Below are positions 34,896-54,982 of a DNA stretch of 64,000 bases, one piece after another. Below the pieces are notes generated by a model. It saw only the letters and a program-made list of their open reading frames with translations. It searched no databases and was not told the origin of the DNA. The number at the start of each line of letters is the position of its first letter. Within the stretch, counting starts at the first letter, position 1. The stretch comes from Candidatus Dojkabacteria bacterium (GTDB lineage Bacteria > Patescibacteriota > Dojkabacteria > SC72 > JAHDCA01), in contig CP129478.1 in the NCBI GenBank assembly GCA_030583845.1, forward strand, positions 279,175-343,174. The letters run 5' to 3'. The position numbers and the translations under genes were made by a program.

Positions 34896-37800
34896 TTAAG
34901 CGGTAATTTGTGTTGGAGAAACCGATTGCGGACTATCAACTCTCCTCATCACTCCACTCTCAGTACTCCCGGTCCAATTATCCTCGGGAGGCTGCAGCTT
35001 GAAATTACCCGTTATCAGATCCAATTTCTTATTAATTGTGTACTTTACCTTCCCTTTGACCACTTTATGCTCACCGTTGAATTCCAATCTGTAAATCCCG
35101 GCGAATGAGACAATCCTATACCTTCCCTGCTCGTCAGTAATCACCTTCTGAACAGTTTTATCCGTCCCCTCTTCGATTAAAGTAATCTCCACACCGGCCA
35201 ACCTATTCCCTTTAACAGACCTTACCACACCATATGTATAGCCACTCTTAAGCATGCTCTGAATGATTAAAAGGCTTACAGGTATTAGATATAGCAGGAA
35301 GAATGTGAAGTTCAACCACGATGGAGAGGTAATAAGTACAAGGCCAGAGAGCACCATGCCTAGAACTAATAGTATCCTCAAAACAATAAATAGTGCATTC
35401 ACAAAACCGCTCTGTGCGACATTTACTAATACTGTGCTCCACCCGCTCTCAGCTCTATCTAGCGGCACTGCTCTATCTACCGAGTAATCCTTTTTGTGAC
35501 TAAATACTCCACCAAGGTAAAGGCTTTGATAGATCCCATCTGTAGAGGTCTTGATCGTCCTTGCAGGGAATCGGTAGCCAGTCTTAACTGCATCGATCCT
35601 ATATCTACCATTATCAAGGTATAGGTTATACACACCGTTATATCTGGTCACATCTGTATCAACCAACCTGCCAAAATCGTCGTAAACACGTACTATCACA
35701 TTATTTAGTGGGGCTTTGTCTTGAGCATCGTAGACGATACCGAACGACTCACGTTTGCGCGATTTCAAGAAGTTCAGCAGTGCGATCCAGAACCGCAAGG
35801 CCATGCCAGGGATCTCTGGTATGAAGAGTAATATGTAGCCCGCAGAAGCGGCTGTAGCCACTCCAGAAGTTACCAGATCGTACTCTCCCTCCTCCCACTC
35901 CTCCACCACCCGTCCAGTGGTCTCAACGATAGCTTCCCCAGCCCTACCTATTATCGACTGTGGTTGCGAGGTAGTCTGCCTTCCGCTACCATTATTTGCT
36001 GGTGCGGCTGGCTCCTCTCCGTCGTCTGGTTCTGCGCCTGGTACAGGCTCAGGTTCTGGTTCGGGTTCAGGATCCTGTTCTGGTTCAGGCGGTAAAGGTT
36101 CACTATTAGATATCAGCACCGTCTCTGAATAAACCTCCGAAAGGTTACCAACGGCGTCTCTAAGCCTCACATTTATTGTTACCGAGCCAGTTGCCGTAGT
36201 CCTGTATTCAAGATTTGCTTCGTACTGCTCCCACTCAGTTTCAATAAATTCTTCGCCTTCCGATATCATAATCTCGGCAACGCCAGAACCAGTATCGATC
36301 GCAGGTATCAAAATTACTATATCTCGAATATTACTACTGCCCGAATTGTCTGTAATAAATAGTTCGCCCACAGGAGGGATAGTGTCAACTCCGAAGGCAA
36401 CCTCTCCTTCGTTTGCAGTACTATAAACGACTGGGTAAAGGGTTGGATCATAGCCACCAACGCGCCAGTAGTAAGTAGAATCACCTAGAACTTGCCCTTC
36501 GTTACCTACAGCATATGTGCCGCCTGAAGGAGCCTGACCAACGGTGAAGGTATAACTACCTTGTGCTAGTGGTGCCGATGTGAAATCAACGACAGGGGTT
36601 GAGAAATCTTCGCTGTCATCAATCTGAATTCGATACTGGACTGTGTCCGTACTGTCCTCATCAGATATAGCAAATGCAAATACAGGGGCTGTATTAACGC
36701 TAAACTCTCCATCTATTACGGCACCCTCACCAAGATCGGTCGTCACCGGAATTCCGAAGTTCCAACCAACATTATTACCTAGGTTAGACCCAGTACCAAG
36801 TAGCTGAATAGCAGTCGGACTATTATTTACGCTATCGCTAACATCCACATACTGTATATTCCTTGAACCTTGAGGATCAATGTACCAAGGCTGACCTGGA
36901 GTTACAGAGACCAAATCAATATGATTGTTTTCTGTCCCCGCAATCGTAGTCATACCTTCTACTGTTATCACACTTCCTTCTAACACCTGGAAAGTAGCGA
37001 TGTTTGGCAATACCTCAATATTATTAAACTGATAGTTTCCTGTAAGGATCGTTGCACCACCGTCGAAGATCACTGTACCGTTATTATGATTAAAAATACC
37101 ACTATTGGTTAAGTCACCTGTGACAATAAGCTCATCAGATGGTGCGGTTAATGTACCGTTATAGTTAATGACCAATTGCGAAACCGTTGAAGTAGCAGGT
37201 AGCATCAGGTGACTCGAGACTTCAACCATAACATCACTATTAAAGCTCGTTGACCCACTTAGGTCAGTAACAGTTGTAGTTGAAACAGTAAGGTTGTCAA
37301 TGTTAAGAGAGTCAAATCCTGAGAAAAAGCCACCAGGATCCTGGGATAACTCAGCTAGGTAAAGTGTATCTCCTCCCTTCGTGAGCGTTCCCGTGCCAGT
37401 CAAACTGGCACCGCCCAGGTCATACCTGTACAGATTTATTGCTCCATTTGGAAGTACTGGATCGTTACCGACTGGAAGGCTACAGTTATTTGCGATTCCT
37501 AGAATAGAGTCTAGGCCGAATGTCACATGGTTAAACACGAAGTTTTCACAGTCTATTGGCTCATATGCGGTATTATCAAAGTGGATTGTTCCATTGTTAT
37601 GATCAAATGTTGTCGTGCCAGTCACCTGCATCTGGCCACGTAATGTAGTTGTGCCGGCGGAAGCGATCAGGTTTCCGCCAGAAAAGGTGAAGTCGCCAAA
37701 AGCGGAGTTCTCAGCAAGTGTGAGTGTGCCCGAACTAAAGGTCAGAGTTCCTGCAATGTCCAAACCGCTGTATCCAGATAGGTTTAATGTTGGACCTGAG

Positions 37801-40685
37801 ACTATCATATCCTCCAGTATATATAGACTCTCAAAGCCGCTAAGAACGCCTGTGCTATTTACAGTCAAATCACCCTGAATGGTCAGATCACCACTGCCCG
37901 AGAGAGTCCCCTGCAGTGATATTGCTGCTGTGACGACTGCATCGCCCCCGAGTGGTAATGAACAGCTAGACGCTACGGTTTTCGTACTCGTGTGATTAAA
38001 GCTCACGAGATTGAAAGTTGAATTATTACAATTAATACTGCCTGAGATTCCGTCAAAGGTAAGTACCCCTCCGTTATGATTAAATGATCCAGACCCACTT
38101 ATGGTGAAAGAACCGGAGACGGACATTGTATTTGAAGATGCTGTCATACTCCCACCACTGACTGATACCGAGGTAAGATCAGCAATCGGCGGCAAGGTTA
38201 TGCTTCCAGAGCTTACTGCAACAGTAGTCGCTGCTATACCTGTCATTATCGATGTGTTAAACGTCCCACCTGCGATGGTAATAGAGTTCATCGAACCATT
38301 ACTGAAACCGCTTACCACTCCACCACTATTCACTGTGAGTATCCCCATTGCTGTAAGCGTACCACTCCCACTCACATTACCGTTGACTGTCAAACCGCCG
38401 GAGTTGTTTACCCCAACGGTGGGATTATTTCCTAATGCAATAGTGCAGGTGGAGGATATAGTCTTAACCCCTGTATTGCTAAAAATTACCTGATTAAATG
38501 ACACACTGTTACAGTTGAGTGTTGCAGTGCTGCCATCAAATATTATCGTCCCACTATTGTGGTTGAATACAGCACTACCTGAGATGGTAAGCGCGCCTGC
38601 TAAGTTAAGTGTCGAGGATGAGGCTGTAAAGGTTCCGGCGCTCATGGAAAGAGTTCCATTTATATCTGCAACTGGGGGTAAAGTTACGCTACCTGAAGTC
38701 ATAAGCAGCTGACCTGAGAGGGTCAAACTACTTATCCCGCTGAGATTCAGAGTGGCACCAGATACAGTCAAGCCGCCACCTGAGATGCTAGAGAATCCAC
38801 TAAAACTAGCGCCACTGTTGAGAGTAAATAGTGAACCAGTAGGAAAGGTCAAAGTACCAGTTCCACTTAAGGTACCTGCCACCGTTAGCCCTCCGTTTCC
38901 GAGTAGAGTTGGGTTGTTCCCAAGTGGTATTGTGCAACTTGATGAAATAGTCTTACTGCCACTATTGTTAAACGTCACAAGGTTAAACAGTTTCCCTCCG
39001 CAGGTTACTGTCCCAGAGCTACCCGTAAAGCTTACTGTACCGTTATTGTGATTAAAGGTTGAGCTAGCGTTAAAGTTTATACCTCCAGTAATAGTCATAG
39101 TCCCAGATGGGGCGGTAACATTTGCAGCTGCATTTAGGTTCAGTGTACCGAAACTCGTCCCAGACGGTGGTAACACGATTGTCCCATTAACTATTAGCGA
39201 CGAGGTGGAAACAAACGATGTGTAGCTACTAAAATCGCCGTCTACAACAATTAACGATGCTATGGCAAGTCCACTAAAGCCACTGAAAACTGAACCTGCA
39301 GAAGCAGTCATACTCCCATTGTTTTTAGTAAAAGTTCCAGTGCCACTCAAAGTACCATACAACTGGATAAATCCAGATGCTGTGGTTGTGTAATTGTTTC
39401 CTACTGGTAGGGTACAATCACTGTTGAAAGTCCGGCTTGAGCTACTTGTGATTTGCACAGTGTTGAAGGTTACATTTCCACACGCAATCACAGCTGATGA
39501 CGACCCATCAAAAATTACAATTCCACTGTTGTTATTAAATGTTGCAGCGCTGTCGATTGTTACCGCATTGCCTAGGTTCGTATTACCGGACGAGGCAGTA
39601 AAAATTGCGCCACTATTAAGCGTAACCGTACTATTTGCATCAAAGTTGAAACTGTTCGCACTATATGTACCTGCGGACTGAGTATAGGCACCATTCATAA
39701 TCAGGGCTCGTCCCTGGGTTACTACTCCGCTATACCCAGCATTAATACTTACAGCCGTTATAGTACCACCAAAAGAGCTGTCTACCGTAGAATTTTTACT
39801 GCTTGTACCATCAAATATTACTGAGTCCGCTGAGGTAGGACACACATCGGTGCTCCAGTTAGTACACTCGCTCCAGTTCTCCGTAGCTCCACCACCATCC
39901 CAGGTGTAGGTAGCCGCTTTCGCCGGAGATCTAAAAAAATTAAAAAACTCATACGAGGATAACGATACTAGAACAACCTGCGCACAGAGGAAAAGAGTGA
40001 AGGTGAGGGTGACAGCTAACGCCGGATAGGCTCGAACTCTGGATAGCCTTAGATCGTCTTTGCGCTGAGGGACATTGAGATCCTTGTCGCCCCGGGAGAT
40101 CAGAAAGTAGAGTATCGAGAGAAAGAAGGTCGTTATTACCTGGTAGAAAATCCAATTCGCTCGCAGGATAGCTTTGGAGATAGGACCGTTACCCTTCTGC
40201 GCCATGTCAGCGGACTGATTTGAGAGGTGAGCATACCTGTATGCTTGCGAAGCAATATACTTAACAAATCGGAACCATCTCGAGCCATCCTCCACTCTGC
40301 CCTCTACTAGTGAAGAGATCTCATTGATAAGCCTGTCGAGAAAATCGGAGTCGTCTTTATCCAGTACTACATAATCGCTGGGAAGATCACCCAGTTTCTG
40401 ATTTGCCGCGGTCAGTACTACCACCTTTTTTGATGACTCGTTAAGTACCTTGTTGGTTCTCACATACTCTATTATTTCTAATCCACCATACTGAGGGAGT
40501 GTCGCATCGATTACTATGATCTCTGGATGGACTACATATAGATAGCCGAGACCGTCCATGCCGTTAGAGCATGTATAGATATTTAACTTCTCCTTGCGAA
40601 ATGAGGAGTAGAGCAGGTTTTTCAGTACAAGCCGTATGACAGAATCGTCTTCTATTAATACTATATTTACGGAATCCCTTCCCAT
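34896..40685 (-). CDS. Giant 1929-aa protein: N-terminal CheY-like receiver domain, TM segments, about 1300-aa tandem beta-helix-like repeat region, Pro/Glu linker, further TM segments and two PEGA/CarboxypepD_reg-like domains
   Basis: REC residues in place (IEDD, VIDATLP, VVLTAAN, LDKDD). TM candidates ILRANWIFYQVITTFFLSILYFLI and AYPALAVTLTFTLFLCAQVVLVSL. Six or more repeats of about 150 aa around FNHNNGT[VI]xFDG…C…N…C…LP[LV]GN. EPEPEPEPEP linker. Later TM helices and domains such as VRVYDDFGRLV…GVYNLYL…GRYRIDAVKTGYRF and GVEITLIEEGTDKTVQKVITDEQGRYRI. Confidence 0.6.
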   Translation of the reverse strand: MGRDSVNIVLIEDDSVIRLVLKNLLYSSFRKEKLNIYTCSNGMDGLGYLYVVHPEIIVIDATLPQYGGLEIIEYVRTNKVLNESSKKVVVLTAANQKLGDLPSDYVVLDKDDSDFLDRLINEISSLVEGRVEDGSRWFRFVKYIASQAYRYAHLSNQSADMAQKGNGPISKAILRANWIFYQVITTFFLSILYFLISRGDKDLNVPQRKDDLRLSRVRAYPALAVTLTFTLFLCAQVVLVSLSSYEFFNFFRSPAKAATYTWDGGGATENWSECTNWSTDVCPTSADSVIFDGTSSKNSTVDSSFGGTITAVSINAGYSGVVTQGRALIMNGAYTQSAGTYSANSFNFDANSTVTLNSGAIFTASSGNTNLGNAVTIDSAATFNNNSGIVIFDGSSSAVIACGNVTFNTVQITSSSSRTFNSDCTLPVGNNYTTTASGFIQLYGTLSGTGTFTKNNGSMTASAGSVFSGFSGLAIASLIVVDGDFSSYTSFVSTSSLIVNGTIVLPPSGTSFGTLNLNAAANVTAPSGTMTITGGINFNASSTFNHNNGTVSFTGSSGTVTCGGKLFNLVTFNNSGSKTISSSCTIPLGNNPTLLGNGGLTVAGTLSGTGTLTFPTGSLFTLNSGASFSGFSSISGGGLTVSGATLNLSGISSLTLSGQLLMTSGSVTLPPVADINGTLSMSAGTFTASSSTLNLAGALTISGSAVFNHNSGTIIFDGSTATLNCNSVSFNQVIFSNTGVKTISSTCTIALGNNPTVGVNNSGGLTVNGNVSGSGTLTAMGILTVNSGGVVSGFSNGSMNSITIAGGTFNTSIMTGIAATTVAVSSGSITLPPIADLTSVSVSGGSMTASSNTMSVSGSFTISGSGSFNHNGGVLTFDGISGSINCNNSTFNLVSFNHTSTKTVASSCSLPLGGDAVVTAAISLQGTLSGSGDLTIQGDLTVNSTGVLSGFESLYILEDMIVSGPTLNLSGYSGLDIAGTLTFSSGTLTLAENSAFGDFTFSGGNLIASAGTTTLRGQMQVTGTTTFDHNNGTIHFDNTAYEPIDCENFVFNHVTFGLDSILGIANNCSLPVGNDPVLPNGAINLYRYDLGGASLTGTGTLTKGGDTLYLAELSQDPGGFFSGFDSLNIDNLTVSTTTVTDLSGSTSFNSDVMVEVSSHLMLPATSTVSQLVINYNGTLTAPSDELIVTGDLTNSGIFNHNNGTVIFDGGATILTGNYQFNNIEVLPNIATFQVLEGSVITVEGMTTIAGTENNHIDLVSVTPGQPWYIDPQGSRNIQYVDVSDSVNNSPTAIQLLGTGSNLGNNVGWNFGIPVTTDLGEGAVIDGEFSVNTAPVFAFAISDEDSTDTVQYRIQIDDSEDFSTPVVDFTSAPLAQGSYTFTVGQAPSGGTYAVGNEGQVLGDSTYYWRVGGYDPTLYPVVYSTANEGEVAFGVDTIPPVGELFITDNSGSSNIRDIVILIPAIDTGSGVAEIMISEGEEFIETEWEQYEANLEYRTTATGSVTINVRLRDAVGNLSEVYSETVLISNSEPLPPEPEQDPEPEPEPEPVPGAEPDDGEEPAAPANNGSGRQTTSQPQSIIGRAGEAIVETTGRVVEEWEEGEYDLVTSGVATAASAGYILLFIPEIPGMALRFWIALLNFLKSRKRESFGIVYDAQDKAPLNNVIVRVYDDFGRLVDTDVTRYNGVYNLYLDNGRYRIDAVKTGYRFPARTIKTSTDGIYQSLYLGGVFSHKKDYSVDRAVPLDRAESGWSTVLVNVAQSGFVNALFIVLRILLVLGMVLSGLVLITSPSWLNFTFFLLYLIPVSLLIIQSMLKSGYTYGVVRSVKGNRLAGVEITLIEEGTDKTVQKVITDEQGRYRIVSFAGIYRLEFNGEHKVVKGKVKYTINKKLDLITGNFKLQPPEDNWTGSTESGVMRRVDSPQSVSPTQITA

Positions 40686-44826: not shown

Positions 44827-45486
44827 ATGATGGATTTCACACAGTGGGTTACAGACATTGGAATGACAGAGCAGATGCTACTTATGCTGCTCTATATTCC
44901 TGTGATCGTCACTCTTATTAACTTCACCAGGTATGTGGTTGGATTTAAGACTTTGGGAATCTATGCCCCAATGGTTCTAGCATATGCCTATATCTTCACC
45001 GGGATACGTTTCGGTTTACTTATCACCGCTGCGGTAATCGCTGGAACTCTCATCACCTACTCTATCTTCAAGAAGGTGAGAATGCACTATATCTCCAGAA
45101 TCTCTGTCAACTATATATTGGTAACCTTTTTCATTATCTTCGTGATTGCTTTTAATGAAATTTCGCCATTCCCCATCACTACTGAGAACCATAACGTTGC
45201 TACAATTCCACCACTTGGTGTGATCTTGATCGTAACTCTTTCTGACTTCTTCATTAAACAGTATGTTAAGAAGGACCTGGGTAGCTCACTTAGAGCTGTG
45301 GCCGAGACTGTAGTCATCGGTATTGCTGGCTGGGCACTCCTAAGACTCCCATTTCTACAGGTATTTATCCTAGATAACCTATGGCTGCAGCCGATCCTCT
45401 TAGGGGTAAATATTGCACTTGGTAAATATACAGGGGTAAGATTTAAAGAGCTCTTCAGATTTCAACGGGTTATTAAAGACGAGTAA
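44827..45486 (+). CDS. Seven-TM integral membrane protein (no catalytic motif), first gene of the ATP-grasp locus
   Basis: 219 aa with about seven hydrophobic helices. Its position immediately upstream of a RimK-like ATP-grasp mirrors the 7TM partner of RLAN-type amidoligase systems (family assignment unverified). Confidence 0.5.
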   Translation: MMDFTQWVTDIGMTEQMLLMLLYIPVIVTLINFTRYVVGFKTLGIYAPMVLAYAYIFTGIRFGLLITAAVIAGTLITYSIFKKVRMHYISRISVNYILVTFFIIFVIAFNEISPFPITTENHNVATIPPLGVILIVTLSDFFIKQYVKKDLGSSLRAVAETVVIGIAGWALLRLPFLQVFILDNLWLQPILLGVNIALGKYTGVRFKELFRFQRVIKDE

Positions 45487-45536: not shown

Positions 45537-46997
45537 ATGATAGCCACAGCCATTTTTGGGCAGAAAGAAAAAGAGGTGTTGGGGATCAACAGGCGCAACC
45601 AGAACTATATCCGTGCCTTCAATCCCCCATCAGCTCGTGGTAAGGCCGACAACAAGCTCACGACCAAGAAGATTCTCAATCAGGTTGGCATCAAGACACC
45701 TGAACTGTACAAAGTAATCCGCAGCAAGCAGCAGCTCAAATTCTTCGACTGGAACTCATTGCCCAAGAGCTACGTCATCAAGCCAAACCGCGGCTCTCAA
45801 GGAAGCGGCATCATAGTCTTCTACGGCCAGAAGAAGAATAGCCTCGAATGGATCCGACCGAGCGGCCAGACCATGGATCCACACGAGATCTCCCTGCACA
45901 TGGAGAAGATTCTGGACGGCCGTCTATCTATGGGTAACCGCAAAGATATTGTGATAATAGAGGATAGAATTCGAACCCATAGTGAATTGAAGCGCTACTC
46001 ATACAAGGGTGTTCCCGACATTCGCCTCATCGTCTTCAACAGAGTGCCTATCATGGCCATGGTACGCCTGCCCACCCGTCGCTCCGACGGTAAAGCCAAC
46101 CTACACGCTGGTGCGATCTGTGCTGGTATCGACATAGCATCAGGCGTCACTACAAATGCAATGCACCTTCGCAAGCAGCCGCTGATTGAGGACACATATG
46201 AAGACCTCGAATTTACCCTAGACCAGAATCCTCCCCTACCCCTGAGAGGTATCAAGATCCCATTTTGGGAAGAGATCCTACAGATAGCAGTAAAATGCCA
46301 AGAGGTTAGCGGCCTAGGCTATCTAGGCGTCGACATCGTAATCGACCAAGAGCATGGCCCAATGGTGCTTGAGCTGAACGCACGTCCCGGGCTAGGCATC
46401 CAGACAGCAAACAAGACAGGTCTACGGGCTCGATTAGAGCGAGTCGCTGGGCTGCAAATCAAGAGCAATAAGCATGGAATCCGCGTGGCTAAGAGCCTAT
46501 TCGGTGGTGAGGTCGAGGAAGAGATCGAGGTGATCAGCGGTAAGCGGGTAGTCAATCTTGTAGAGAAGGTAAATGTATACCACTCCGAGCATGCAGACAA
46601 GAAGGAGCTGGTGAGTGCAATGTTGGACACAGGAATTACTACATCTCGAATCGACGAGGGGCTCGCCTCTCGGCTTGGTTTCACAGACGCTCTGAAAAGC
46701 TTTTCCGAGCATAAACCACCCCGTGAGTTCGGTAGTTTCACAGAAGCCCAACAGTACATAGATGCCCATGAGGAAGAGATTACCTCACACCCACAGATTT
46801 TACGTCTCGCTAAGATATCAGAAGATGGCAAAATCAATGTAAAGCCTGTTATTAGCCTTGAAATCAAGGTCGCAGGTGAAAGACGCGCGATGGACTTTGT
46901 TGTAAGCACTCAAAGTGATATGCTCTATCCAGTGCTGATCGGTCGCGCAGAGCTGAAGAGCTACCTGATAGACGCCAGCAAGACCTTCACACGCTAA
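45537..46997 (+). CDS. RimK-like ATP-grasp amidoligase with N-terminal INRRN region and C-terminal retropepsin-like (PF05618-type) peptidase domain
   Basis: N-terminal GINRRNQNYI (the motif of alpha-L-glutamate-ligase-related proteins). Central ATP-grasp elements (…IIEDRI…RLIVFNRVPIMAMVRLP…DGKANLHAGA…LGVDIVID…VLELNARPG). C-terminal …MDFVVSTQSDMLYPVLIGRAELKSYLIDASKTF matches the LLGRraL…VDps signature of the ATP-dependent-zinc-protease/retropepsin-like family. Confidence 0.6.
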   Translation: MIATAIFGQKEKEVLGINRRNQNYIRAFNPPSARGKADNKLTTKKILNQVGIKTPELYKVIRSKQQLKFFDWNSLPKSYVIKPNRGSQGSGIIVFYGQKKNSLEWIRPSGQTMDPHEISLHMEKILDGRLSMGNRKDIVIIEDRIRTHSELKRYSYKGVPDIRLIVFNRVPIMAMVRLPTRRSDGKANLHAGAICAGIDIASGVTTNAMHLRKQPLIEDTYEDLEFTLDQNPPLPLRGIKIPFWEEILQIAVKCQEVSGLGYLGVDIVIDQEHGPMVLELNARPGLGIQTANKTGLRARLERVAGLQIKSNKHGIRVAKSLFGGEVEEEIEVISGKRVVNLVEKVNVYHSEHADKKELVSAMLDTGITTSRIDEGLASRLGFTDALKSFSEHKPPREFGSFTEAQQYIDAHEEEITSHPQILRLAKISEDGKINVKPVISLEIKVAGERRAMDFVVSTQSDMLYPVLIGRAELKSYLIDASKTFTR

Positions 46998-47016
46998 CCT
47001 AACTCTTCATTTGAAT

Positions 47017-48006
47017 ATGAGCCAGTACAATATGGATCCCAAATATCTAGAGCAAGGCGGCAATGTCCACCTCGCTTACTATCTAGAAGCAGCCGACCAG
47101 CTTGGCATCAAATATGATGTCATCATCCGCTCGCTCACAGCCCGCATGGAGAAAGATGGGAAGATCTGGTTTATGATGAACGCCTCGGTTCCTATTAACG
47201 GCGAGCCCAGCTCTACACTATCCCGCATCAAGAGCTATACATACAAAGTTTTCCAGCACGCTGGTATCCCAGTGGCTGAGCAGGCTGAGTTATTCAGTGA
47301 GCAAGATGCATTAGGATTCTTCAACCAGTATAAGAATATCGTCATAAAGCCTGTCCGCAATATCGGAGGCACCGGCATCACTATCCTGCCACAAAGCGAA
47401 GATGAGGTGCGTCAGGCATATGTCCTCGCCCGCGACAAGAATATGGCAAGCACAAAGGTCGAGGCTTTGGCCGAACGATTCGCTATCGGCTCTAATTATA
47501 GACTGTTAGTACTTGGTGATGAGGTAATTGGTGCCGTACATAGAAGGCCAGCCCATGTCACAGGTGATGGAGTCTCGACAGTTGCACAGCTGGTCGAAGC
47601 AAAAAATGCAGCACGCAAGGCAGAGCTGATGAAACCGATCAAGCTTGATGCCCAGAGCATGCTGAAGCTGAGGTCCAACGGATTTACCGAGGGCTATGTG
47701 CCTCAAGCGGGCGAAGAGGTCGAGCTGAGATTCAACTCGAATCTCTCAACTGGAGGCACGACTGAGGAGTGCATGTCGAGAATTCACCCTAGCTATCTGG
47801 ATCTAGCCATACGCGCTACTAAGGAGCTCGGCTTAAAACTAGGCGGCGTAGATCTGATTGCCGAGGATGTGACCACTCCTGGTGCTGCTGCAGTTATTAA
47901 CGAGATAAACACAAATCCAGGGCTAAGGGTGCATTATAAGGTGGATAAGGGCGAGGTTGTGCCAGTTGCTACGAAGATTCTCTCCTACATAGTGGCCAAT
48001 ATATAG
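47017..48006 (+). CDS. Cyanophycin-synthetase-like ATP-grasp domain protein (short, 329 aa)
   Basis: …IVIKPVRNIGGTGITIL…NYRLLVLGDEVIGAVHRRPAHVTGDGVSTVAQLVEAKN…STGGT…GVDLI… resembles the CphA central ATP-grasp block. Confidence 0.6.
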   Translation: MSQYNMDPKYLEQGGNVHLAYYLEAADQLGIKYDVIIRSLTARMEKDGKIWFMMNASVPINGEPSSTLSRIKSYTYKVFQHAGIPVAEQAELFSEQDALGFFNQYKNIVIKPVRNIGGTGITILPQSEDEVRQAYVLARDKNMASTKVEALAERFAIGSNYRLLVLGDEVIGAVHRRPAHVTGDGVSTVAQLVEAKNAARKAELMKPIKLDAQSMLKLRSNGFTEGYVPQAGEEVELRFNSNLSTGGTTEECMSRIHPSYLDLAIRATKELGLKLGGVDLIAEDVTTPGAAAVINEINTNPGLRVHYKVDKGEVVPVATKILSYIVANI

Positions 48007-48028
48007 TTTGAGCTCACAGAAGGGATCC

Positions 48029-48223
48029 TTAGCGTACCCAGAGCTGCCACACTACTACTGAGCTGAGGACTGCAATAACTGCAATTAGCATGAACACAAG
48101 GTATGTATTTGCCCTCATAAGCCTTCGTGATTTAGCGAGCTGGAGCTTCTGGTTTACAGTGCTACCACTCTTCTTTGCAGTTGTAATCTTCATCTCTTTT
48201 GCCATATCGCCAGTATACCACAA
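48029..48223 (-). CDS. Small hypothetical tail-anchored membrane protein (doubtful)
   Basis: 64-aa ORF with a C-terminal hydrophobic helix YLVFMLIAVIAVLSSVVVWQLW. It overlaps the glyQS promoter region. Confidence 0.2.
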   Translation of the reverse strand: MWYTGDMAKEMKITTAKKSGSTVNQKLQLAKSRRLMRANTYLVFMLIAVIAVLSSVVVWQLWVR

Positions 48224-48226
48224 GCA

Positions 48227-48557
48227 AAAGCGAAATTTGCATTGCCTGCCTGCTTAGAGCTATAATACCAGCAGAAAGAGATCTTTGAAGCAAACACAGA
48301 GAGTCGACCCAAGGCATGAATTGCCGGATTTGAGAGGTTGGCGAGCTTACAAATTGGCACTCTTTTCGCTTGAGAAAGCAGCGTGATAAAAGAATATCGA
48401 GAGATTATCGCAGCTTATATGGCGCGGTAATAATGCGGGTGGAACCGCGGTAGTACATTTTTGAAATATACCGTCCCGCTAACTTATAGTCCATAGCCTC
48501 GGCGACGGAGTATAAGTTAGCGGGACGGTTTTTATTTATATATAATCATTTAAGAAT
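48227..48557 (+). promoter_or_regulatory. glyQS T-box riboswitch leader: promoter TTGCAT-18-TATAAT (48227-48256), AGAGA and GGC specifier region, T-box sequence AATGCGGGTGGAACCGCGG (48432-48450), terminator hairpin (48470-48529) plus U-tract (48530-48540)
   Basis: Seen directly: 17/19 match to the AAUUAGGGUGGNACCGCGG consensus, with UGGA (N=A, matching the tRNA-Gly discriminator U). Antiterminator pairing GCGGG/CCCGC and CGGUA/UACCG around a UGGAACC bulge. The terminator is a REP-family hairpin followed by TTTTTATTTAT immediately before the glyQS start. Confidence 0.7.
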
Positions 48558-48575
48558 ATGGAAAAAGAGAAAAGC

Positions 48576-49973
48576 ATGACAATAGAGACGCTTGCGGCAT
48601 TTGCAAAAAGGCGCGGCTTCGTATTTCAATCATCAGAGATCTATGGTGGATTTGCCGCTGTATACGACTACGCACATTACGGTGCGCTTATGCGCGAGAA
48701 TATCAAGCAGGCGTGGGTCAAAGAGATGATCCGCCGAGATGATGTGAAGCTTCTCGATTCAGCAGTATTTATGCACCCAACCACCTGGAAGGCCAGCGGA
48801 CATGTTGATTCATTCGCCGATCCTGAGATCGATTGCAAAAGCTGTAAGAACCGATTTAAAGCCGACCACCTCTTGGAGCCACTTGGATATACCGATGTCG
48901 ACCGCATGGAGATTTCAGAAGCAAACAAGATCGTAGAGCAGGTCAAAGCAGAAGGGAAATTGAAGTGTCCAGTATGCGGAGGCAAAGATCTCACAGATAT
49001 TAAGCGATTTGACCTGCTGGTTAAATCAAACTTAGGCTCCCCTACTTCAGAGCTTTCAGAAGAGAATGTTGTCTACCTACGAGGTGAGACCTGCCAAGGT
49101 ATCTATCTCAACTATAAGAATTACCTGCAGAATATGCGGGTGAAGGTTCCGTTTGGTATAGCTCAGGTTGGTAAAGCTTTCCGAAACGAGGTGGTCGCAC
49201 GACAGTACACTTTCCGTATGCGCGAATTTGAACAGTGCGAGATGCAATATTTCGTTCACCCAACTGACGAGCAGCCGAAATATGACTATTGGAAAAAGGA
49301 GCGAATGAGGTGGTGGAAAGAGGAGTTGGGCGTGCCTGCAGAGATGCTTAGATTTAAAGATCACGAAAAGCTTGCCCACTACGCGAAAGCAGCATGTGAT
49401 GTAGAGTACGACTTCAATGTACTTGGGAAATTTGCCGAGGTTGAGGGTATCCATCAGCGAGGTGATTGGGATCTCTCACAGCATCAGAAATTCTCAGGCG
49501 AGAATCTCGAGTATTTCGACCAGGATAAGAACGAAAAGTATATCCCACACATAGTAGAGACTTCGGGTGGACTCGACCGAATGTTCCTTGCCGTACTCGA
49601 TAGCGGCTATACAGAAGAGACGCTTGAAGATGGTAGCGAAAGAGTTGTGTTGAAGGTGAAGCCATCATTGGCACCAATAAAGGTGGCAGTATTCCCACTT
49701 ATCAAGAAGCCCGAGCTCACAAAATTGGCTAAAGATATCTATCAATACTTGCTTTCACAGCACATGGTCGAATATGATGAAACAGGATCAATCGGTAAGC
49801 GATATAGAAGACAGGATGAGATCGGTACACCTTTCTGCATCACTGTCGACTTCGAATCACTCGAGGACAACATGGTGACATTGCGCAACAGAGATACGCT
49901 AGAGCAGGAAAGGATCAAGATCGACGATATGCCACAGATTATTAACTCAAGGTTGTATCCGGAGAAGGCTTAA
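48576..49973 (+). CDS. glyQS: Glycyl-tRNA synthetase (single-chain alpha2 type)
   Basis: Class II motifs (…FRNE…, …GGLDR…) and N-terminal …FVFQSSEIYGG…. An alternative ATG lies at 48558. Confidence 0.9.
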   Translation: MTIETLAAFAKRRGFVFQSSEIYGGFAAVYDYAHYGALMRENIKQAWVKEMIRRDDVKLLDSAVFMHPTTWKASGHVDSFADPEIDCKSCKNRFKADHLLEPLGYTDVDRMEISEANKIVEQVKAEGKLKCPVCGGKDLTDIKRFDLLVKSNLGSPTSELSEENVVYLRGETCQGIYLNYKNYLQNMRVKVPFGIAQVGKAFRNEVVARQYTFRMREFEQCEMQYFVHPTDEQPKYDYWKKERMRWWKEELGVPAEMLRFKDHEKLAHYAKAACDVEYDFNVLGKFAEVEGIHQRGDWDLSQHQKFSGENLEYFDQDKNEKYIPHIVETSGGLDRMFLAVLDSGYTEETLEDGSERVVLKVKPSLAPIKVAVFPLIKKPELTKLAKDIYQYLLSQHMVEYDETGSIGKRYRRQDEIGTPFCITVDFESLEDNMVTLRNRDTLEQERIKIDDMPQIINSRLYPEKA

Positions 49974-50011
49974 AACCAGGGTAATTGTTAAATTTATTGC
50001 CAGCTGCCAAT

Positions 50012-51694
50012 ATGGAAATCAAAGTATTACAGGGTGTGAACTTTGAAGCACCGCACACGCTTATTAAGATCAGCCTAGATGGTGATGCTGGTAAAGTAAC
50101 TCCCCTACTCGACCTAGTTAAATCTTTCCACCATGTCTTGTTAAAGGAGTATGTGGTGGACGGCTCGACGGTGATATTGAATTCGAAGCTAACGCACTTG
50201 TGGAAGAGTTCAGCAGAGCATCTGAACAAACTATCTTTAGGCGAACTCTCACAAGAAGAGGTTGAAGAATACGTTATAGGATATACTATCAAGAATCAGA
50301 TCTACTCGATGTCGACACTGTTTATGCTGGAAGGCGCGATCGAGTTAGGTGAAGAAGTCACCCAGTCTCTCTTTAACGGCCCTGTATTCGATGACCCTTC
50401 TTATGAGAAGCCTGGTGGTGCATGGAATCGTGTCTATACGATCGGAGCCGGCTCGGCCGCAATGCTTACAAAATCAACTGGCTCTACTGGTGACCCGATC
50501 ATGGCTTTGAATATCCAGCGAGACAAGTGGGTAACCAACACATATGCCGATCGATTGAAGCTCCCTGTAGCCAAATGGGACTTACTTCGATCCGAAGAAG
50601 AGGTTGAGCGACTTTTTGAGGAGTATGAGAAGCCCGTGGTTATAAAACCGACAGGATTGGTAGGTGGCAATGGGGTCACCACCAATATTAATACTCTCGA
50701 GCAAGCTAAAAAGGCATACAATTATGCCTACGACATCGTCCATGAGAAAAACCGATCGGCGTGGCAGCAGAAGATTATGATCCAGCAGCAGGTCGCAGGT
50801 GAAGATTATCGACTACTGGTCGTTGGTGGAATCTTGGAGATTGCTACCAAGCGCATCCCAGCCTTTGTGACTGGCGATGGGAAATCCACTCTGGAGCAGT
50901 TGATCGAAGAGACAAACAGAGATCCACGCCGAGACATGCGCAACCCCGCCCATATCTTGAAGCCGATAGCTTTCGATGAGAAACTGGACGAGTATCTTGC
51001 TGAGCAGAATCTATCGCTCGACCATATCCCAGGTGAGGGTGAGAAGATCTTCGTGCGCAAGGTTGCAAGCATGAGCCAGGGTGGGATCACAGAAGATTTC
51101 ACAGATAAAGTACACCCACAGATTAAGTATCTTGCAGAATCAATGGCCAGCTCGATCCACGCACATGTGGTTGGCATCGACGTGATCTGCAAAGATATCT
51201 CGAAGCCTTTGACCGCAGACAACGGTAGCTTTATCGAGATGAACACAATGCCCGAAGCATACCTCAACACCTTCCCGGTGATCGGCAAGCAGTATCCCGA
51301 GACAGGTCAGGTAATCATTAAGCGACTGCTGGAGAAGATGAAGCCAGTAACCCGTATCGTGGCTATAGGGTTGGGATTACCAGAGCTGTTTGAGAAGTTG
51401 GAGAACGAGGGTGTGATTGTCGATGATGCAATTGTAGGTACAGTGTCGGGTGGTAGCATCTATATCGACAGCGAGATTATGCATGAGGATGTAGAGACCT
51501 GGGAGGCAGTAGAGGCACTCAAATTGAATGCCCTACCCTCGGTGCTAGTGCTGCACTATAAAGATGCTGACGAAGTTGAGGAAGTGGGACTTGGGTTTGA
51601 TAAGGTAGACTATCTAATCGCCAATGATGAGGTAAGTGAGAAGCTGAGTGGCGAGGGATATAAGAGTAAGGTGTTGAATTTCATTAAAATCTAA
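50012..51694 (+). CDS. Cyanophycin-synthetase-like ATP-grasp protein lacking the Mur-ligase half (561 aa), with about 120-aa unknown C-terminal region
   Basis: …VVIKPTGLVGGNGVTTNI…DYRLLVVGGILEIATKRIPAFVTGDGKSTLEQLIEETNRDPRR…SMSQGGITEDFTDKVHPQ…HVVGIDVICKDISKPL…FIEMNTMPEAY closely follows the CphA ATP-grasp block (…HRVLVV…AVAERVPAHVIG.GKSTI.ELIE.VN.DPRRG…). No MurE-like domain follows. Confidence 0.65.
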   Translation: MEIKVLQGVNFEAPHTLIKISLDGDAGKVTPLLDLVKSFHHVLLKEYVVDGSTVILNSKLTHLWKSSAEHLNKLSLGELSQEEVEEYVIGYTIKNQIYSMSTLFMLEGAIELGEEVTQSLFNGPVFDDPSYEKPGGAWNRVYTIGAGSAAMLTKSTGSTGDPIMALNIQRDKWVTNTYADRLKLPVAKWDLLRSEEEVERLFEEYEKPVVIKPTGLVGGNGVTTNINTLEQAKKAYNYAYDIVHEKNRSAWQQKIMIQQQVAGEDYRLLVVGGILEIATKRIPAFVTGDGKSTLEQLIEETNRDPRRDMRNPAHILKPIAFDEKLDEYLAEQNLSLDHIPGEGEKIFVRKVASMSQGGITEDFTDKVHPQIKYLAESMASSIHAHVVGIDVICKDISKPLTADNGSFIEMNTMPEAYLNTFPVIGKQYPETGQVIIKRLLEKMKPVTRIVAIGLGLPELFEKLENEGVIVDDAIVGTVSGGSIYIDSEIMHEDVETWEAVEALKLNALPSVLVLHYKDADEVEEVGLGFDKVDYLIANDEVSEKLSGEGYKSKVLNFIKI

Positions 51695-51701
51695 GGATGT
51701 A

Positions 51702-52661
51702 ATGCAGATGCGATACCTATACATAGAAAAGCCCCAAAGAGTCAAAATGTCCGGTGAATACCCGAAGCGTGCTATACGCATAATGGAGGAGCTTGAGAAG
51801 GCCGGTCTTCCTTATGATTTCGCATACAACGATCAGATATCAATTTCATTAAATAAAAGCGAGCTCCAGATTAAAGTTAATGGAAAAGATGTTAGAGAGT
51901 ACACACATATTATCTTTGGTGGTCACCACCTCCATAGCCAACGAGATTACGAGATAAAGAGACTGATCGTCGACGTTGTCGATGAGCATAACCAGGATAG
52001 CGGTAACTCAGAGCCCATAAGAGTTCAGAACTCTCGATTCATTAAACGAATGACATTCTACTCAAAGCTGCACATGGCAAAGATCTGCGCAGACTATGGC
52101 CTACCGTTCCTCGCAACATATTACGACCGCTCGGGTAAGTATCAGCAGTCCAACCTACCCTTCCCCTACCCTCTGATTGCAAAACATGTCGATGGTCGCA
52201 ATGATCTGGTGATGATCGACGGTGAGAAGAAAGTTAAAAAGAATGTATACAAGCTTGATAATGAGAACGGTTGGAAGCAGGACAGGCTGGCCACCAAGAG
52301 CCCAGCGCTCTTCTTCATACAGGAATTCGCCGACTCAGGAGAAGATTTCCGATATTTTGTATCCAAGGGCGAAGTGATAGGAGGCTGGAAGCGTGTCGCG
52401 GGCGACAGCTTTATGACCGTGAACCGCAAAGAGGGTGCCAGATATTTCTATGCCAACGAGCCAGACAAGAAGATTCGAGATATCTGTAAAGCCGCCGCGG
52501 ATGGCTGGGGAGTCGACTTTATGGCATTGGACTTCATGTATAAGGATGGTGAGCCTCACATTTTGGAGTTCAGCATGAACCCTGGCTTCGATGCCTATGA
52601 GAAGAAGTGCGAAGATGGCGAGCCAACAAATATCGCCGAGGCGATCGTTAAATCTTTTTAA
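51702..52661 (+). CDS. RimK-like ATP-grasp ligase (alpha-L-glutamate ligase family)
   Basis: …FFIQEFADSGEDFRYFVSKGEVIGGWKRV…MALDFMYKDGEPHILEFSMNPGF… parallels RimK (…DIRCFVVGD.VVAAMKR…EVNSSPGL). Confidence 0.6.
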   Translation: MQMRYLYIEKPQRVKMSGEYPKRAIRIMEELEKAGLPYDFAYNDQISISLNKSELQIKVNGKDVREYTHIIFGGHHLHSQRDYEIKRLIVDVVDEHNQDSGNSEPIRVQNSRFIKRMTFYSKLHMAKICADYGLPFLATYYDRSGKYQQSNLPFPYPLIAKHVDGRNDLVMIDGEKKVKKNVYKLDNENGWKQDRLATKSPALFFIQEFADSGEDFRYFVSKGEVIGGWKRVAGDSFMTVNRKEGARYFYANEPDKKIRDICKAAADGWGVDFMALDFMYKDGEPHILEFSMNPGFDAYEKKCEDGEPTNIAEAIVKSF

Positions 52662-52709: not shown

Positions 52710-53870
52710 TTATAGCCCTGCTACCTTGAAAGCATCATCAAACATCTTCTTGCTGTAAACAAGCTTTGGCTTAGGGATGAGCCCTTCATCCACCCACTTT
52801 ATCTGGCTAAATCCGATCTTGCCAGCATATAGCTTCTCATAGATTGTAGGATCCTTCTCTACTTTATTCCTGACCCTTCTAAAGCCTTTAAAGTAGTTAT
52901 AGTCCCGCGAGTATATACCCGGCATATTTGTATCCCCTAGCCCACGCTTGACTCGATATACGATGTGGAATGCCTCGATCCTAGGAGCAAAAGCCTGTGT
53001 AGCATTATAAAGCTCACGGAACGACATCTGCTCACCAACCCGGATAGCCCACACCTTGACTGCTCGGCCTACCAGATCTTTCTTCTTCAATACGCCAACC
53101 ATCTCCTCATTATATGTAGCTAATCCCTCCTCTGCCTCAAGATATGAAGGGAGGTTTGAATTTGCCAAGGCAGGCACTTTAGTCTGCTCTCCATTATAGG
53201 CCCTGGCTATATGCGTGAATTCATGCACAATTGTCTTCCGTAGATCTACGGCACTCTTCTCAATCTCTGGATCCATCAATATCTCCTTCTTCTTGATACC
53301 AACCTTCACCCCGTTCTTGTCGATGTTCTTTGACTTGCCTGCTTTCCAATCACTCAGTCCAAGCTCCTCAAGGACGATTGCCATAGTTTCTGCAATCTCT
53401 TCGTACCTCAGCTTTCTCTCAACTTTCTTACTCCCCTCATCCATCAGTTTGTAATTTTTCACCTTGCCCCGTAGCACTCTTGTGGCATTCCTAAAAAGGA
53501 TATCGCCAGGCATTCCAAATCTCTCCTGCGAGAGTCTTGTGAATCTAAAATTCTGGCCGACTGAATGTAGAAGCTCATTGAGCTGGTGCTTCGAATCGAT
53601 CAGTTCTAGGTAGAATTCTGAAATTCGAGGATCTACATCGGTGACAACTTTTACACTACTCAGCTTTGCTAAGATGTCGGCATTTTTATTTTTTACAACT
53701 GTATAAGTGAAAAGCGGGTTGTAGCTGCTGGACTCAAAGAATCTCTTGCGCTCTTCTTTTAGGTTGGTTGGGGTGAACACTAGGGATGTAGGGGCGCGGA
53801 ATTCTTGCAGCAGCTCTGTTAGTTCCTTGAGCTTAATTTCGCTCTTTCCTTTTTTGGCGAATATCGTCAT
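52710..53870 (-). CDS. DUF1704 / QEGLA-motif zincin-like protein
   Basis: HExxH IVHEFTHI and EEGLATY (QEGLA-like) motifs. The ORF's first 23 codons (to 53939) run through the 25-bp palindrome, so the ATG at 53870 is preferred. Confidence 0.5.
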   Translation of the reverse strand: MTIFAKKGKSEIKLKELTELLQEFRAPTSLVFTPTNLKEERKRFFESSSYNPLFTYTVVKNKNADILAKLSSVKVVTDVDPRISEFYLELIDSKHQLNELLHSVGQNFRFTRLSQERFGMPGDILFRNATRVLRGKVKNYKLMDEGSKKVERKLRYEEIAETMAIVLEELGLSDWKAGKSKNIDKNGVKVGIKKKEILMDPEIEKSAVDLRKTIVHEFTHIARAYNGEQTKVPALANSNLPSYLEAEEGLATYNEEMVGVLKKKDLVGRAVKVWAIRVGEQMSFRELYNATQAFAPRIEAFHIVYRVKRGLGDTNMPGIYSRDYNYFKGFRRVRNKVEKDPTIYEKLYAGKIGFSQIKWVDEGLIPKPKLVYSKKMFDDAFKVAGL

Positions 53871-53971: not shown

Positions 53972-54982
53972 TTATTCTTTCGCGATGCTAGTCACGCCTG
54001 CTGCGAGCAGCTCCAAGGCTGCACCAGTACCCTTTGCCACACAGTACATCGGCTCATCAGCAACGTATGCAGGCACGCCGGTCGCCTTCGTGAATAGCTT
54101 GTCCAGATTCCGAAGCATTGCTGTACCCCCACTCATCGCCATGCCACGATCAATAATATCGGCCGATAGTTCAGGCGGTGTCTTTTCTAACACAGACTTG
54201 ATAGCCTGAATAATTTGCGCCAGCGGCACTCGCAAAGCCTCTGCGACCTCATTCGAATTTATCTCCATCGAGCGAGGCATTCCGCCTGCTGCATCACGAC
54301 CACGAATCTCCATCGATTGTGGATTCTCCACCTTCATCGCTGAGCCAATCTTAATCTTGATCATCTCGGCTGTTTGCTCACCAACCAGCAACCCATGTCG
54401 CTTACGCAGGTATGACACAATAGCATCATTAAGCGCATCTCCTGCGACACGCAAGGATGAGTACTCTACAATTCCACGGAGCGAGATCACGGCAATTTCA
54501 GAGGTACCACCACCCATATTTACGATCATGCTTCCGGTCGAGGTCTCAATTGGCAAGCCGGCGCCAATCGCTGCGAGCAACGGCTCGGGCACCAGATAGA
54601 TCTTACGGGCTCCAGCAGCCGTAGCCGCCTTGAGCACAGCACGCTTCTCTACAGAGGTGATTCCGGCAGGCACGCTAATCATCACATCCGGTTTGAAAAA
54701 TCGAGAAGGACCTCCAAGTGCTTTGTTGAAGAAATACTTAAGCAGAGCTTCGGTCACGCGTGAGTCTGCAATAACACCGCTTCGCATTGGCCTGCGAGCT
54801 ACGATGTCATCGGGAGTCTTGCCGATCATCTCCTTTGCCTCCATCCCTACGGCTAGGACCGACATATTGTTTACATCAAGGGCGACAACTGTGGGCTCTG
54901 TTAGCACCACACCCTTGCCCTCGAGAAATACTATTGAATTGGCTGTTCCTAGGTCGATGCCTAGCTTCTTTCCTCCTATCAT
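53972..54982 (-). CDS. MreB/Mbl-like actin homologue (second copy)
   Basis: LGIDLGTANSIVF…, NMGGGTSE… actin-fold motifs. About 50% identical by eye to the mreB at 30478..31527. Confidence 0.8.
   Translation of the reverse strand: MIGGKKLGIDLGTANSIVFLEGKGVVLTEPTVVALDVNNMSVLAVGMEAKEMIGKTPDDIVARRPMRSGVIADSRVTEALLKYFFNKALGGPSRFFKPDVMISVPAGITSVEKRAVLKAATAAGARKIYLVPEPLLAAIGAGLPIETSTGSMIVNMGGGTSEIAVISLRGIVEYSSLRVAGDALNDAIVSYLRKRHGLLVGEQTAEMIKIKIGSAMKVENPQSMEIRGRDAAGGMPRSMEINSNEVAEALRVPLAQIIQAIKSVLEKTPPELSADIIDRGMAMSGGTAMLRNLDKLFTKATGVPAYVADEPMYCVAKGTGAALELLAAGVTSIAKE

Follow-up and report, generated by a model that had tools for sequence, protein, structure and literature searches.

Single-active-site cyanophycin synthetases of the CphA2 type have been treated as a cyanobacterial speciality (PMC10273328, PMC10206079), and their truncated M domain is catalytically dead and forms part of the dimer and hexamer interfaces (PMC10273328). 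In Pseudomonas, the rloABC genes affect hypo-osmotic tolerance, antibiotic resistance and cell shape, and RimB-type retropepsins trim the products of RimK (PMC11957051), whilst enzymes of the MATCAP/TMCP group remove C-terminal residues and deglutamylate acidic tails (PMC10499314). Here we describe a locus that bears likeness to each of these systems, found in a 64-kb stretch of DNA (hereafter the window) from Candidatus Dojkabacteria (candidate division WS6, Patescibacteria). A preliminary description had presented two ORFs (open reading frames) in the window as a pair of genes related to cyanophycin synthetase (CphA). Both are present on the plus strand as intact ATP-grasp ligase genes (g3 and g5); they are, however, the core of a conserved cluster in which six genes carry four ATP-grasp ligases (g2, g3, g5 and g6) rather than two, as well as two peptidases and one membrane protein. 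On the plus strand, g1, g2, g3, glyS, g5 and g6 follow nusG-rplKAJL in that order, and g7 and a second mreB lie on the minus strand. From the alignments and residue comparisons given below, we conclude that g3 and g5 are predicted active ligases, that neither appears set up to make arginine-decorated cyanophycin, and that the specificity of g5 is predicted to be distinct from that of every characterised CphA. The components of the cluster are as follows.

44827..45486, plus strand: g1, seven-transmembrane (7TM) membrane protein corresponding to the C-terminal half of RloB (Pfam 7TM_transglut; PF14402, NF052267).
45537..46997, plus strand: g2, RloC-like ATP-grasp ligase (residues ~1-305) with a C-terminal retropepsin-like domain (residues ~335-486) (PF14397, TIGR02291).
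47032..48006 (ORF opens at 47011), plus strand: g3, free-standing, complete CphA-type G domain of 324 aa (amino acids) (NF010623, AlphaFold2 model).
50012..50356, plus strand: N-terminal region of g5 (residues ~1-115), probable counterpart of the CphA N domain (whole-chain fold match).
50357..51340, plus strand: G domain of g5 (residues ~116-443), ATP-grasp ligase with a derived acceptor pocket (alignments, invariant catalytic residues).
51341..51694, plus strand: predicted vestigial M-domain stub of g5 (residues ~444-560), ~117 aa (profile alignment, hhalign).
51702..52661, plus strand: g6, RimK-like ATP-grasp ligase with E-x-S in place of E-x-N (PF08443, TIGR00768).
52710..53870 (ORF to 53939), minus strand: g7, metallocarboxypeptidase of the MATCAP/DUF1704/QEGLA family, 386 aa, convergent on g6 (PF08014, TIGR02421).

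The motifs from which a CphA-type ATP-grasp signature had been read in the preliminary description were found in both proteins (NYRLLVLG...RPAHVTGDGVSTVAQLVEAKN in g3 and DYRLLVVG...IPAFVTGDGKSTLEQLIEETN in g5), and the NCBIfam cyanophycin synthetase models bear the assignment out with E-values of 1e-58 for g3 and 4e-70 for g5. The corresponding scores (186/199 bits for g3 and 228/237 bits for g5) lie below the curated CphA cut-offs of 850 bits for TIGR02068 and 877 bits for NF010623. Solved CphA1 and CphA2 chains were the best sequence matches in the PDB (E = 3e-35 to 6e-41), followed among solved structures by the GshAB ATP-grasp module, with RimK (~1e-6) and Ddl/VanA (~3e-4) far weaker. Over 240 aligned columns, the G domain of g5 shares 33-36% of its residues with CphA1, 35% with CphA2 and 31% with g3; at such values the statement that the second ORF follows CphA very closely was too strong, the alignment being nonetheless continuous. 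A kinship with D-Ala-D-Ala ligases (Ddl), which had been named as the outcome that would overturn the assignment, was rejected on both model scores and fold scores. Ddl models matched g3 and g5 at E = 8e-9 or weaker, with scores far under cut-off, and the g3 model gave TMq values of 0.43-0.46 with Ddl structures versus 0.82-0.86 with CphA1.

The ORF containing g3 spans 47011..48006, and within it we prefer the ATG at 47032 over that at 47017, since this start agrees with the consensus of the family and with the NCBI annotation, where g3 is identical to QY318_01470 (324 aa). NF010623 matches g3 across model positions 210-471 (E = 1e-58), and the g3 family profile aligns to CphA1 residues 171-478. 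The AlphaFold2 model (pLDDT 91) has as its best Foldseek match substrate-bound TeCphA1, with a TMq of 0.86 and a root-mean-square deviation of 2.8 A over 320 columns. The protein ends with the G domain and has neither an N nor an M domain; as such, g3 is a complete, free-standing CphA-type G domain.

The second ORF (50012..51694, 560 aa) is identical to NCBI entry QY318_01485, a 'hypothetical protein' of Candidatus Dojkabacteria. Its AlphaFold2 model, built from a 37-sequence family alignment (mean pLDDT 91.5), finds as its best PDB match the whole chain of Gloeothece citriformis CphA2 (GcCphA2, 7TA5; E = 1e-39, TMq 0.71, TMt 0.68, 615 columns), with CphA1 structures and Stanieria CphA2 next; GshF, by comparison, is matched over its ATP-grasp part only (TMq 0.50). 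Likewise, the g5 family profile aligns unbroken to SuCphA1 190-599 and StCphA2 188-580, with the boundary between G and M domains at ~487. The C-terminal 120 aa, earlier described as unknown, thus correspond by alignment to the start of the CphA M domain and are, as far as sequence can tell, a vestige of it. The Mur-ligase P-loop (GTNGKT; AVTGTNGKTTT in CphA1) and the VLE glutamate are replaced by unrelated residues, as they are in CphA2. Aligned by itself with the start of the CphA1 M domain, the stub gave a weak hhalign E-value of 0.016, with 91 columns in register, compared with 0.37-0.49 for controls. By analogy with CphA2, the stub would have a structural role. At the other end of the protein, the first ~115 residues share an L-[RQ]-G-x-N-x-x-S motif with the CphA N terminus, and this motif and the global fold score make the CphA N domain their probable counterpart; they do not match PF18921, and hhalign against the CphA N domain was weak (E = 0.07 over 50 columns). 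The arrangement of CphA2 (N region, G domain and truncated, inactive M domain) is accordingly found in g5, which by this layout has a single active site.

In order to compare active sites, residue roles were taken from the structural and mutational papers on TeCphA1 and StCphA2 (PMC9427784, PMC10273328) and mapped on 77 g3 and 81 g5 orthologues. Residues K220, K261, R309, R323, D431, E450 and N452 (TeCphA1 numbering) are present in 77/77 g3 and 81/81 g5 sequences. In the numbering of g5 itself, K172, K212, R267, R281, D390, E409, N411, S353, E415 and N419 are invariant in all 81. The remaining pocket positions, in TeCphA1 numbering, are occupied as follows.

N394: Asn in 77/77 g3; Ser in 81/81 g5.
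G456: Gly in 77/77 g3; Glu in 81/81 g5 (E415).
R458: Arg in 76/77 g3; Tyr in 80/81 g5 (Y417).
H460: His in 77/77 g3; Asn in 81/81 g5 (N419).
S396: Thr or Ser in g3; Ser in 81/81 g5.
E215 (D212 in CphA2), which binds the primer arginine: Thr in 68/77 g3; variable (Lys, Glu, Thr or Asn) in g5.
His267 of the G-domain P-loop: Gly in g3; mostly Gly in g5.

The combination of N394S, G456E, R458Y and H460N, together with the lack of conservation at the acidic residue that holds arginine, indicates that the unit added by g5 would not be the Asp of CphA1. CphA2 takes a dipeptide and needs D362, N393, S395, R308 and D212 by mutagenesis, the N393A variant of StCphA2 being inactive (PMC9427784, PMC10273328). 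Of these residues g5 keeps D362, S395 and R308; position 393 is Ser in 81/81 orthologues and D212 is not conserved. The building block of g5 is therefore probably not the beta-Asp-Arg of CphA2 either, in so far as specificity can be read from these positions. A Lys-Val pair before the large loop (K391, V392) and an aromatic residue at position 458 are common to g5 and CphA2. The Ser/Glu/Tyr/Asn set recurs in four divergent representatives of 515-543 aa, two of them annotated as Dojkabacteria. As N394 is near-universal across the wider clade, the pocket of g3 is best regarded as ancestral, rather than as proof of Asp use, and that of g5 as derived.

Bona fide CphA adds arginine through a Mur-ligase-like half, and the preliminary description had held that no MurE-like domain follows either ORF. 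This stands for the window: no Mur-ligase Pfam domain was found in any window ORF of >= 200 aa, and a six-frame tblastn search of the whole window with 12 CphA1 M domains gave a best E-value of 0.45. An overlooked adjacent Mur-ligase gene or domain is thereby excluded for the window, and canonical arginine addition is not encoded there. Moreover, no cyanophycinase, isoaspartyl dipeptidase or CphA1 was found among window ORFs of >= 200 aa.

In a neighbour-joining tree of 240 G-domain columns, g3 and g5 form separate deep clades, both outside the clade of CphA1 and CphA2. From the position of g5 it follows, provisionally, that its M domain would have been lost independently of the event in cyanobacterial CphA2. 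A HMMER scan of 1.84 billion representatives yielded about a dozen cluster representatives, and no more, that match g5 over its full length (515-590 aa); all of those with a source name were from Dojkabacteria. The next-best matches (P0251-P0278) are giant proteins (1,100-2,400 aa) in each of which a CphA-like ATP-grasp domain occurs two or three times; these are the nearest relatives of the g5 G domain outside Dojkabacteria, and their hosts are uncultured Gram-negative bacteria. In the five giants that we scanned, these domains are variously fused to PGA_cap, Mur-ligase M and C, acylphosphatase, LPG_synthase_C, AMP-binding and TPR domains. One giant of 1,752 aa, fused to PGA_cap (L089, 8001-13259), lies in an apparent operon with an ABC exporter and a HlyD/AprE-like adaptor. 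Another, of 1,491 aa with TPR and acylphosphatase domains (L090, 3971-12476), adjoins a third giant of 1,253 aa, in which the CphA-like ATP-grasp domains are fused to MmgE/PrpD, in an apparent operon that holds an ABC exporter, a HlyD/AprE-like adaptor and also an outer-membrane factor (OEP). The position of these two giants beside exporter and adaptor genes suggests exported peptides or polymers. Stand-alone CphA-G-like ATP-grasp proteins of ~330 aa, each overlapping a RimK/GSH-S-like gene, were additionally seen in two unidentified metagenomic organisms (L086, 1665-3637; L088, 730-2660); such ligase pairs thus recur outside Dojkabacteria. Against more distant families, g3 and g5 match GshAB ATP-grasp modules with E = 3e-48 and 3e-42, and N-acetylglutaminylglutamine synthetase with E = 1e-36 and 5e-32, respectively.

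Among 185,579 species genomes, 105 loci fitted the search pattern, of which 80 were kept; these are labelled Dojkabacteria/WS6, 'uncultured Candidatus Saccharibacteria' or, generically, Patescibacteria, Microgenomates or unclassified bacterium. The order g1-g2-g3-g5-g6 was found in every locus with enough flanking sequence, and most add g7 and then mreB, convergent on g6. As the orthologues are only 37-60% identical to the window proteins, this linkage does not reflect recent common descent alone. Spacing is tight, as in an operon, with median gaps of -14 bp between g1 and g2, 9 bp between g2 and g3, 10 bp between g3 and g5, 2 bp between g5 and g6 (7 bp in the window) and 3 bp between g6 and g7. 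The g1 stop and the g2 start overlap in 63/63 loci compared, and g3 and g5 are <= 20 bp apart in 66/75 other loci. There is hence no room for a precursor-peptide or carrier-protein gene, and a candidate for such a gene, the 64-aa ORF at 48029-48223, was rejected because it belongs to a lineage-specific insertion. As a rule, rplJL precedes the cluster. The divergent lineage L085 has the order g1, g2, g3, x, g6, g7, x and g5 (x, another position), with rplJL on the other strand and no mreB nearby; the association of the six genes therefore survives rearrangement, and that with rplJL and mreB does not. On these grounds MreB2, the product of the second mreB, and rplJL were rejected as obligatory partners. 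A defence-system identity was rejected as well, as PADLOC models gave no match to the six proteins at E <= 1e-3.

The window differs from most of these loci in the segment that parts g3 from g5. Together with the gene next to g7, its features are as follows.

48029..49973, mixed strands: lineage-specific insertion of a small transmembrane ORF, a T-box-like leader and glyS, outside the system.
48029-48223, minus strand: small ORF of 64 aa with a single transmembrane segment, within the insertion.
48276-48481, plus strand: weak T-box-like leader upstream of glyS (30 bits against a gathering score of 93).
48558-49973, plus strand: glyS (NF003211, E = 3e-177).
53972..54982, minus strand: second MreB paralogue (48% identity to the canonical one), encoded just upstream of g7 and in the same orientation; membership doubtful.

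Elsewhere, glyS was seen in this position in just two near-duplicate loci (L002 and L003), and the contig of a further locus (L004) begins inside glyS, directly upstream of g5. We rejected glyS as a cluster member on account of this distribution and of its own weak T-box-like leader. A promoter-like site was noted at 48461-48490, inside the insertion; promoter and terminator scans did no better than on shuffled sequence.

The first of the partner genes, g1, matches PF14402 (E = 6e-17) and only model positions 310-508 of the 508 in NF052267 (58 bits versus a cut-off of 900), and has no transglutaminase domain. In most orthologues (L001-L083) an FRF motif is followed by a charged, acid-rich C-terminal tail, such as ...FRFRLINKEDDK; the last residue is Lys in 47/67. 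We mention, as speculation, that residues could be trimmed from and added to the protein here. The product of g2 matches PF14397 (E = 7e-69) and TIGR02291 (282 bits, E = 5e-84, versus a cut-off of 314), with weak matches to PF05618 and RloA3 across residues 397-486 and a D-T-G motif near residue 364 that is conserved in 68 orthologues. No signal peptide was apparent by inspection, and since the retropepsin is C-terminal to the ATP-grasp domain an N-terminal signal peptide for it is not possible; the protease would be cytoplasmic, like RimB. The RimK-like protein g6 scores 24.9 bits with PF08443 (cut-off 21) and 39 bits with TIGR00768 (E = 5e-10, cut-off 143); its Mg motif reads E-x-S where E-x-N is usual, with Ser in >= 90% of 77 orthologues.

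For g7 the matches were to PF08014 (E = 2e-26, 93 bits versus a cut-off of 27) and TIGR02421 (E = 1e-30, 107 bits versus a cut-off of 339), and to human MATCAP (7Z5G) with E = 3.5e-9. The H239-E240-x-x-H243 motif and EEGLA are invariant in 60 orthologues. A bacterial homologue on a Vibrio sp. HDW18 plasmid (NZ_CP049914.1; L084, 7056-9047), joins an N-formylglutamate amidohydrolase (FGase) domain (PF05013) to a MATCAP domain (PF08014, E = 6e-102); its annotation reads 'flavohemoglobin expression-modulating QEGLA motif protein'. A MATCAP-ligase fusion or neighbourhood in Proteobacteria was considered and rejected, as this Vibrio homologue is a fusion of FGase and MATCAP with unrelated neighbours. 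The two MreB paralogues of the window are 48% identical, one (53972-54982, minus strand) beside g7 and the other (30478-31527, minus strand) with mreC and PBP2. The second mreB lies <= 100 bp from g7 in 46/51 Dojkabacteria loci, and the C-termini of MreB2 are variable and not acidic.

We favour, with about even confidence, the view that the cluster is an all-ATP-grasp, CphA-derived pathway in which a non-canonical chain, a poly- or oligo(amino acid), is lengthened and trimmed. Read from the folds, domain make-up, conserved catalytic residues, loss of the M domain and gene linkage, the substrates, order of steps, product and part played by the membrane protein might be as follows. The G domain of g5, acting as that of CphA does, would use ATP to phosphorylate the C-terminal carboxylate of the growing chain and then join the incoming amine, elongating the chain with a non-canonical unit. 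The free-standing g3 would most likely ligate a free alpha-amino acid such as Asp, either making the unit that g5 polymerises or decorating the chain, in place of the lost M-domain function. Further residues, probably Glu, would be added by the RimK-like g6 and the RloC-like g2, and the g2 retropepsin and the g7 carboxypeptidase would trim the C-terminus, setting the length of the product or recycling it. Translationally coupled to g2, g1 would place the machinery at the membrane. The product would be non-canonical and probably acidic, and not Arg-decorated cyanophycin. In a more specific form, which is possible but which we put forward only tentatively, Dojkabacteria would make an arginine-less, membrane-associated poly(amino acid) with a 'split' synthetase, g3 standing in for the lost Mur-ligase half and the erasers controlling chain length. 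More boldly, the 7TM protein or the MreB paralogue may bear the growing chain on its C-terminal tail, as a bacterial counterpart of the tubulin glutamylation/detyrosination cycle.

Several considerations weigh against a polymer pathway of this kind. The E-x-S motif of g6 may mean an impaired enzyme. The case for the N region of g5 as a homologue of the CphA N domain is drawn from a global fold match, and the independent origin of the g5 truncation is provisional, coming from a single neighbour-joining tree without support values. The 'Asp pocket' of g3 appears to be ancestral rather than diagnostic, and the linkage comes entirely from one candidate phylum, such that part of its conservation may be inherited synteny. 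Finally, each component has a well-known counterpart that modifies protein C-termini, and by that analogy the cluster would fit the modification of a protein tail equally well.

It is this last explanation that competes best, and we regard it as unlikely, yet as a serious contender: the four ligases would add Glu, Asp and the like to a protein C-terminus, and the retropepsin and g7 would remove them, as RimK and RimB do on S6 or TTL/TTLL with MATCAP on tubulin. The make-up of the cluster lends itself to this, g2 being in effect a RimK-like ligase joined to a RimB-like protease, g6 being RimK-like, and g7 belonging to the tubulin carboxypeptidase family with its active site intact. Candidate targets are also at hand in the cytoplasmic tail of g1 (whose gene overlaps g2 at every compared locus and whose tails are mostly acid-rich), in the adjacent MreB paralogue (encoded directly upstream of g7 in most lineages) and in a ribosomal protein (the cluster usually following rplJL). 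However, the only activity known for G domains of the CphA type is polymer synthesis, GshF is known for ligating small molecules, and neither is known to modify proteins; g5 has also retained the regions that flank the G domain specifically in CphA. Nor do the C-terminal tails single out a target, those of MreB2 being variable and non-acidic, and the adjacency to mreB and rplJL is gone in the divergent lineage in which the six genes still cluster.

An improbable alternative is the synthesis of a small molecule or cell-wall peptide, in which each ligase would act once to give a defined short peptide and the peptidases would recycle it; the product could be an osmolyte or thiol, like N-acetylglutaminylglutamine amide or glutathione, or a peptidoglycan side chain or cross-bridge. 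In keeping with this, g3 and g5 match the ATP-grasp modules of GshAB and N-acetylglutaminylglutamine synthetase, the stand-alone G-like ligases found elsewhere each have a single RimK-like partner beside them, osmotic tolerance and cell shape are influenced by the related Rlo system, and mreB and uppS are among the neighbours. Yet g5 matches CphA as a whole chain and GshF in the ATP-grasp part only (TMq 0.71 versus 0.50), a carboxypeptidase and an endopeptidase-type retropepsin fit chains better than di- or tripeptides, and the cluster has no GNAT, glutamate-cysteine ligase or Mur-ligase partner. Ordinary cyanophycin metabolism, in which g5 would be an orthologue of CphA2 and join imported or recycled beta-Asp-Arg dipeptides back into polymer, is very improbable: the CphA2-like architecture, the shared K391, V392 and aromatic 458, and the family name 'cyanophycin synthetase' given by some automated pipelines speak for it, but the essential N393 is Ser in 81/81 g5 sequences, G455 is Glu, the arginine-binding D212 is not conserved, g5 falls outside the CphA1 and CphA2 clade with 228-237 bits against cut-offs of 850-877, the window holds neither cyanophycinase nor CphA1, and the partner genes are unrelated to cyanophycin metabolism.

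It appears that a CphA2-like architecture arose separately in a bacterium of a candidate phylum, where the substrate pocket differs from that of CphA2 and is strictly conserved. This suggests a product that has yet to be charted, and newly found poly(amino acid) synthetases are of practical use for obtaining biopolymers. The cluster occupies ~7 kb of a ~1-Mb genome (the contig with g5 is 1,036,382 bp) and is kept in >= 80 species genomes, and so likely matters for the cell. It also joins the Rlo module to bacterial MATCAP/QEGLA peptidases, and this compact, soluble version could clarify both families. Each component belongs to a known superfamily. Judged by the searchable literature, the putative N-G-stub enzyme outside cyanobacteria with a re-tooled pocket would be new, as would its free G-domain partner and the fixed link of g3 and g5 to an Rlo-like module and a MATCAP-like peptidase; searches for Dojkabacteria together with cyanophycin, and for DUF1704, found nothing relevant.

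Elsewhere in the window, three further genes were noted. A 1,929-aa protein (34896-40685, minus strand) begins with a response-regulator receiver domain (PF00072, E = 6e-9) and by inspection continues with hydrophobic segments, very long Ser/Thr/Gly/Asn-rich repeats, a Pro/Glu-rich linker and C-terminal hydrophobic segments, an unusual combination. Ribosomal protein S2 (19055-20263, minus strand, 402 aa) is extended at its C-terminus by a segment with a match to the RNA polymerase alpha C-terminal/helix-hairpin-helix domain (PF03118, E = 1e-7). An ORF of 879 aa (11618-14257, minus strand) has no Pfam match at E <= 1e-5.

With P. aeruginosa RloABC the locus has in common, in g1 and g2, the modules of a 7TM RloB-type protein, a TIGR02291/RloC-like ATP-grasp ligase and a retropepsin-like protease; it differs in that RloB has an inactive transglutaminase domain that g1 is without, in that RloA is encoded separately and secreted by means of a signal peptide and the g2 protease is fused to the ligase and cytoplasmic, and in that three further ligases and a MATCAP-like peptidase accompany the module here. 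With the MATCAP/TMCP enzymes and bacterial QEGLA proteins, g7 shares the family signature and an invariant HExxH...EEGLA zinc site, but MATCAP/TMCP act on tubulin, of which there is none here, and the Vibrio QEGLA homologue has no ligase neighbours.

The closest single counterpart of g5 is CphA2 (7TA5, 8FXH/8FXI), its best whole-chain structural match, with the same three-part layout and one active site; in both, an RKV motif precedes the large loop and CphA1 R458 gives way to an aromatic residue. They part company in the stub (~150 aa in CphA2 versus ~117 aa in g5, which is without the C-terminal strand-helix of the hexamer contacts), in the pocket (N393 to Ser, G455 to Glu, H459 to Asn, D212 not conserved), in their entirely different gene partners and in origin, CphA2 being cyanobacterial and g5 coming from a candidate-phylum bacterium with a G-domain identity of 35%. 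The giant multi-ATP-grasp proteins have CphA-like G domains as g5 does, but fused to extra domains such as PGA_cap and Mur ligase. Finally, g3 has the same core, lid and omega subdomains as the G domain of CphA1 (7WAE, 7LG5) and keeps its K220, K261, R309, R323, N394, D431, E450, N452, G456, R458 and H460; unlike CphA1 it has no N or M domain, and E215 and His267 are replaced by Thr and Gly.

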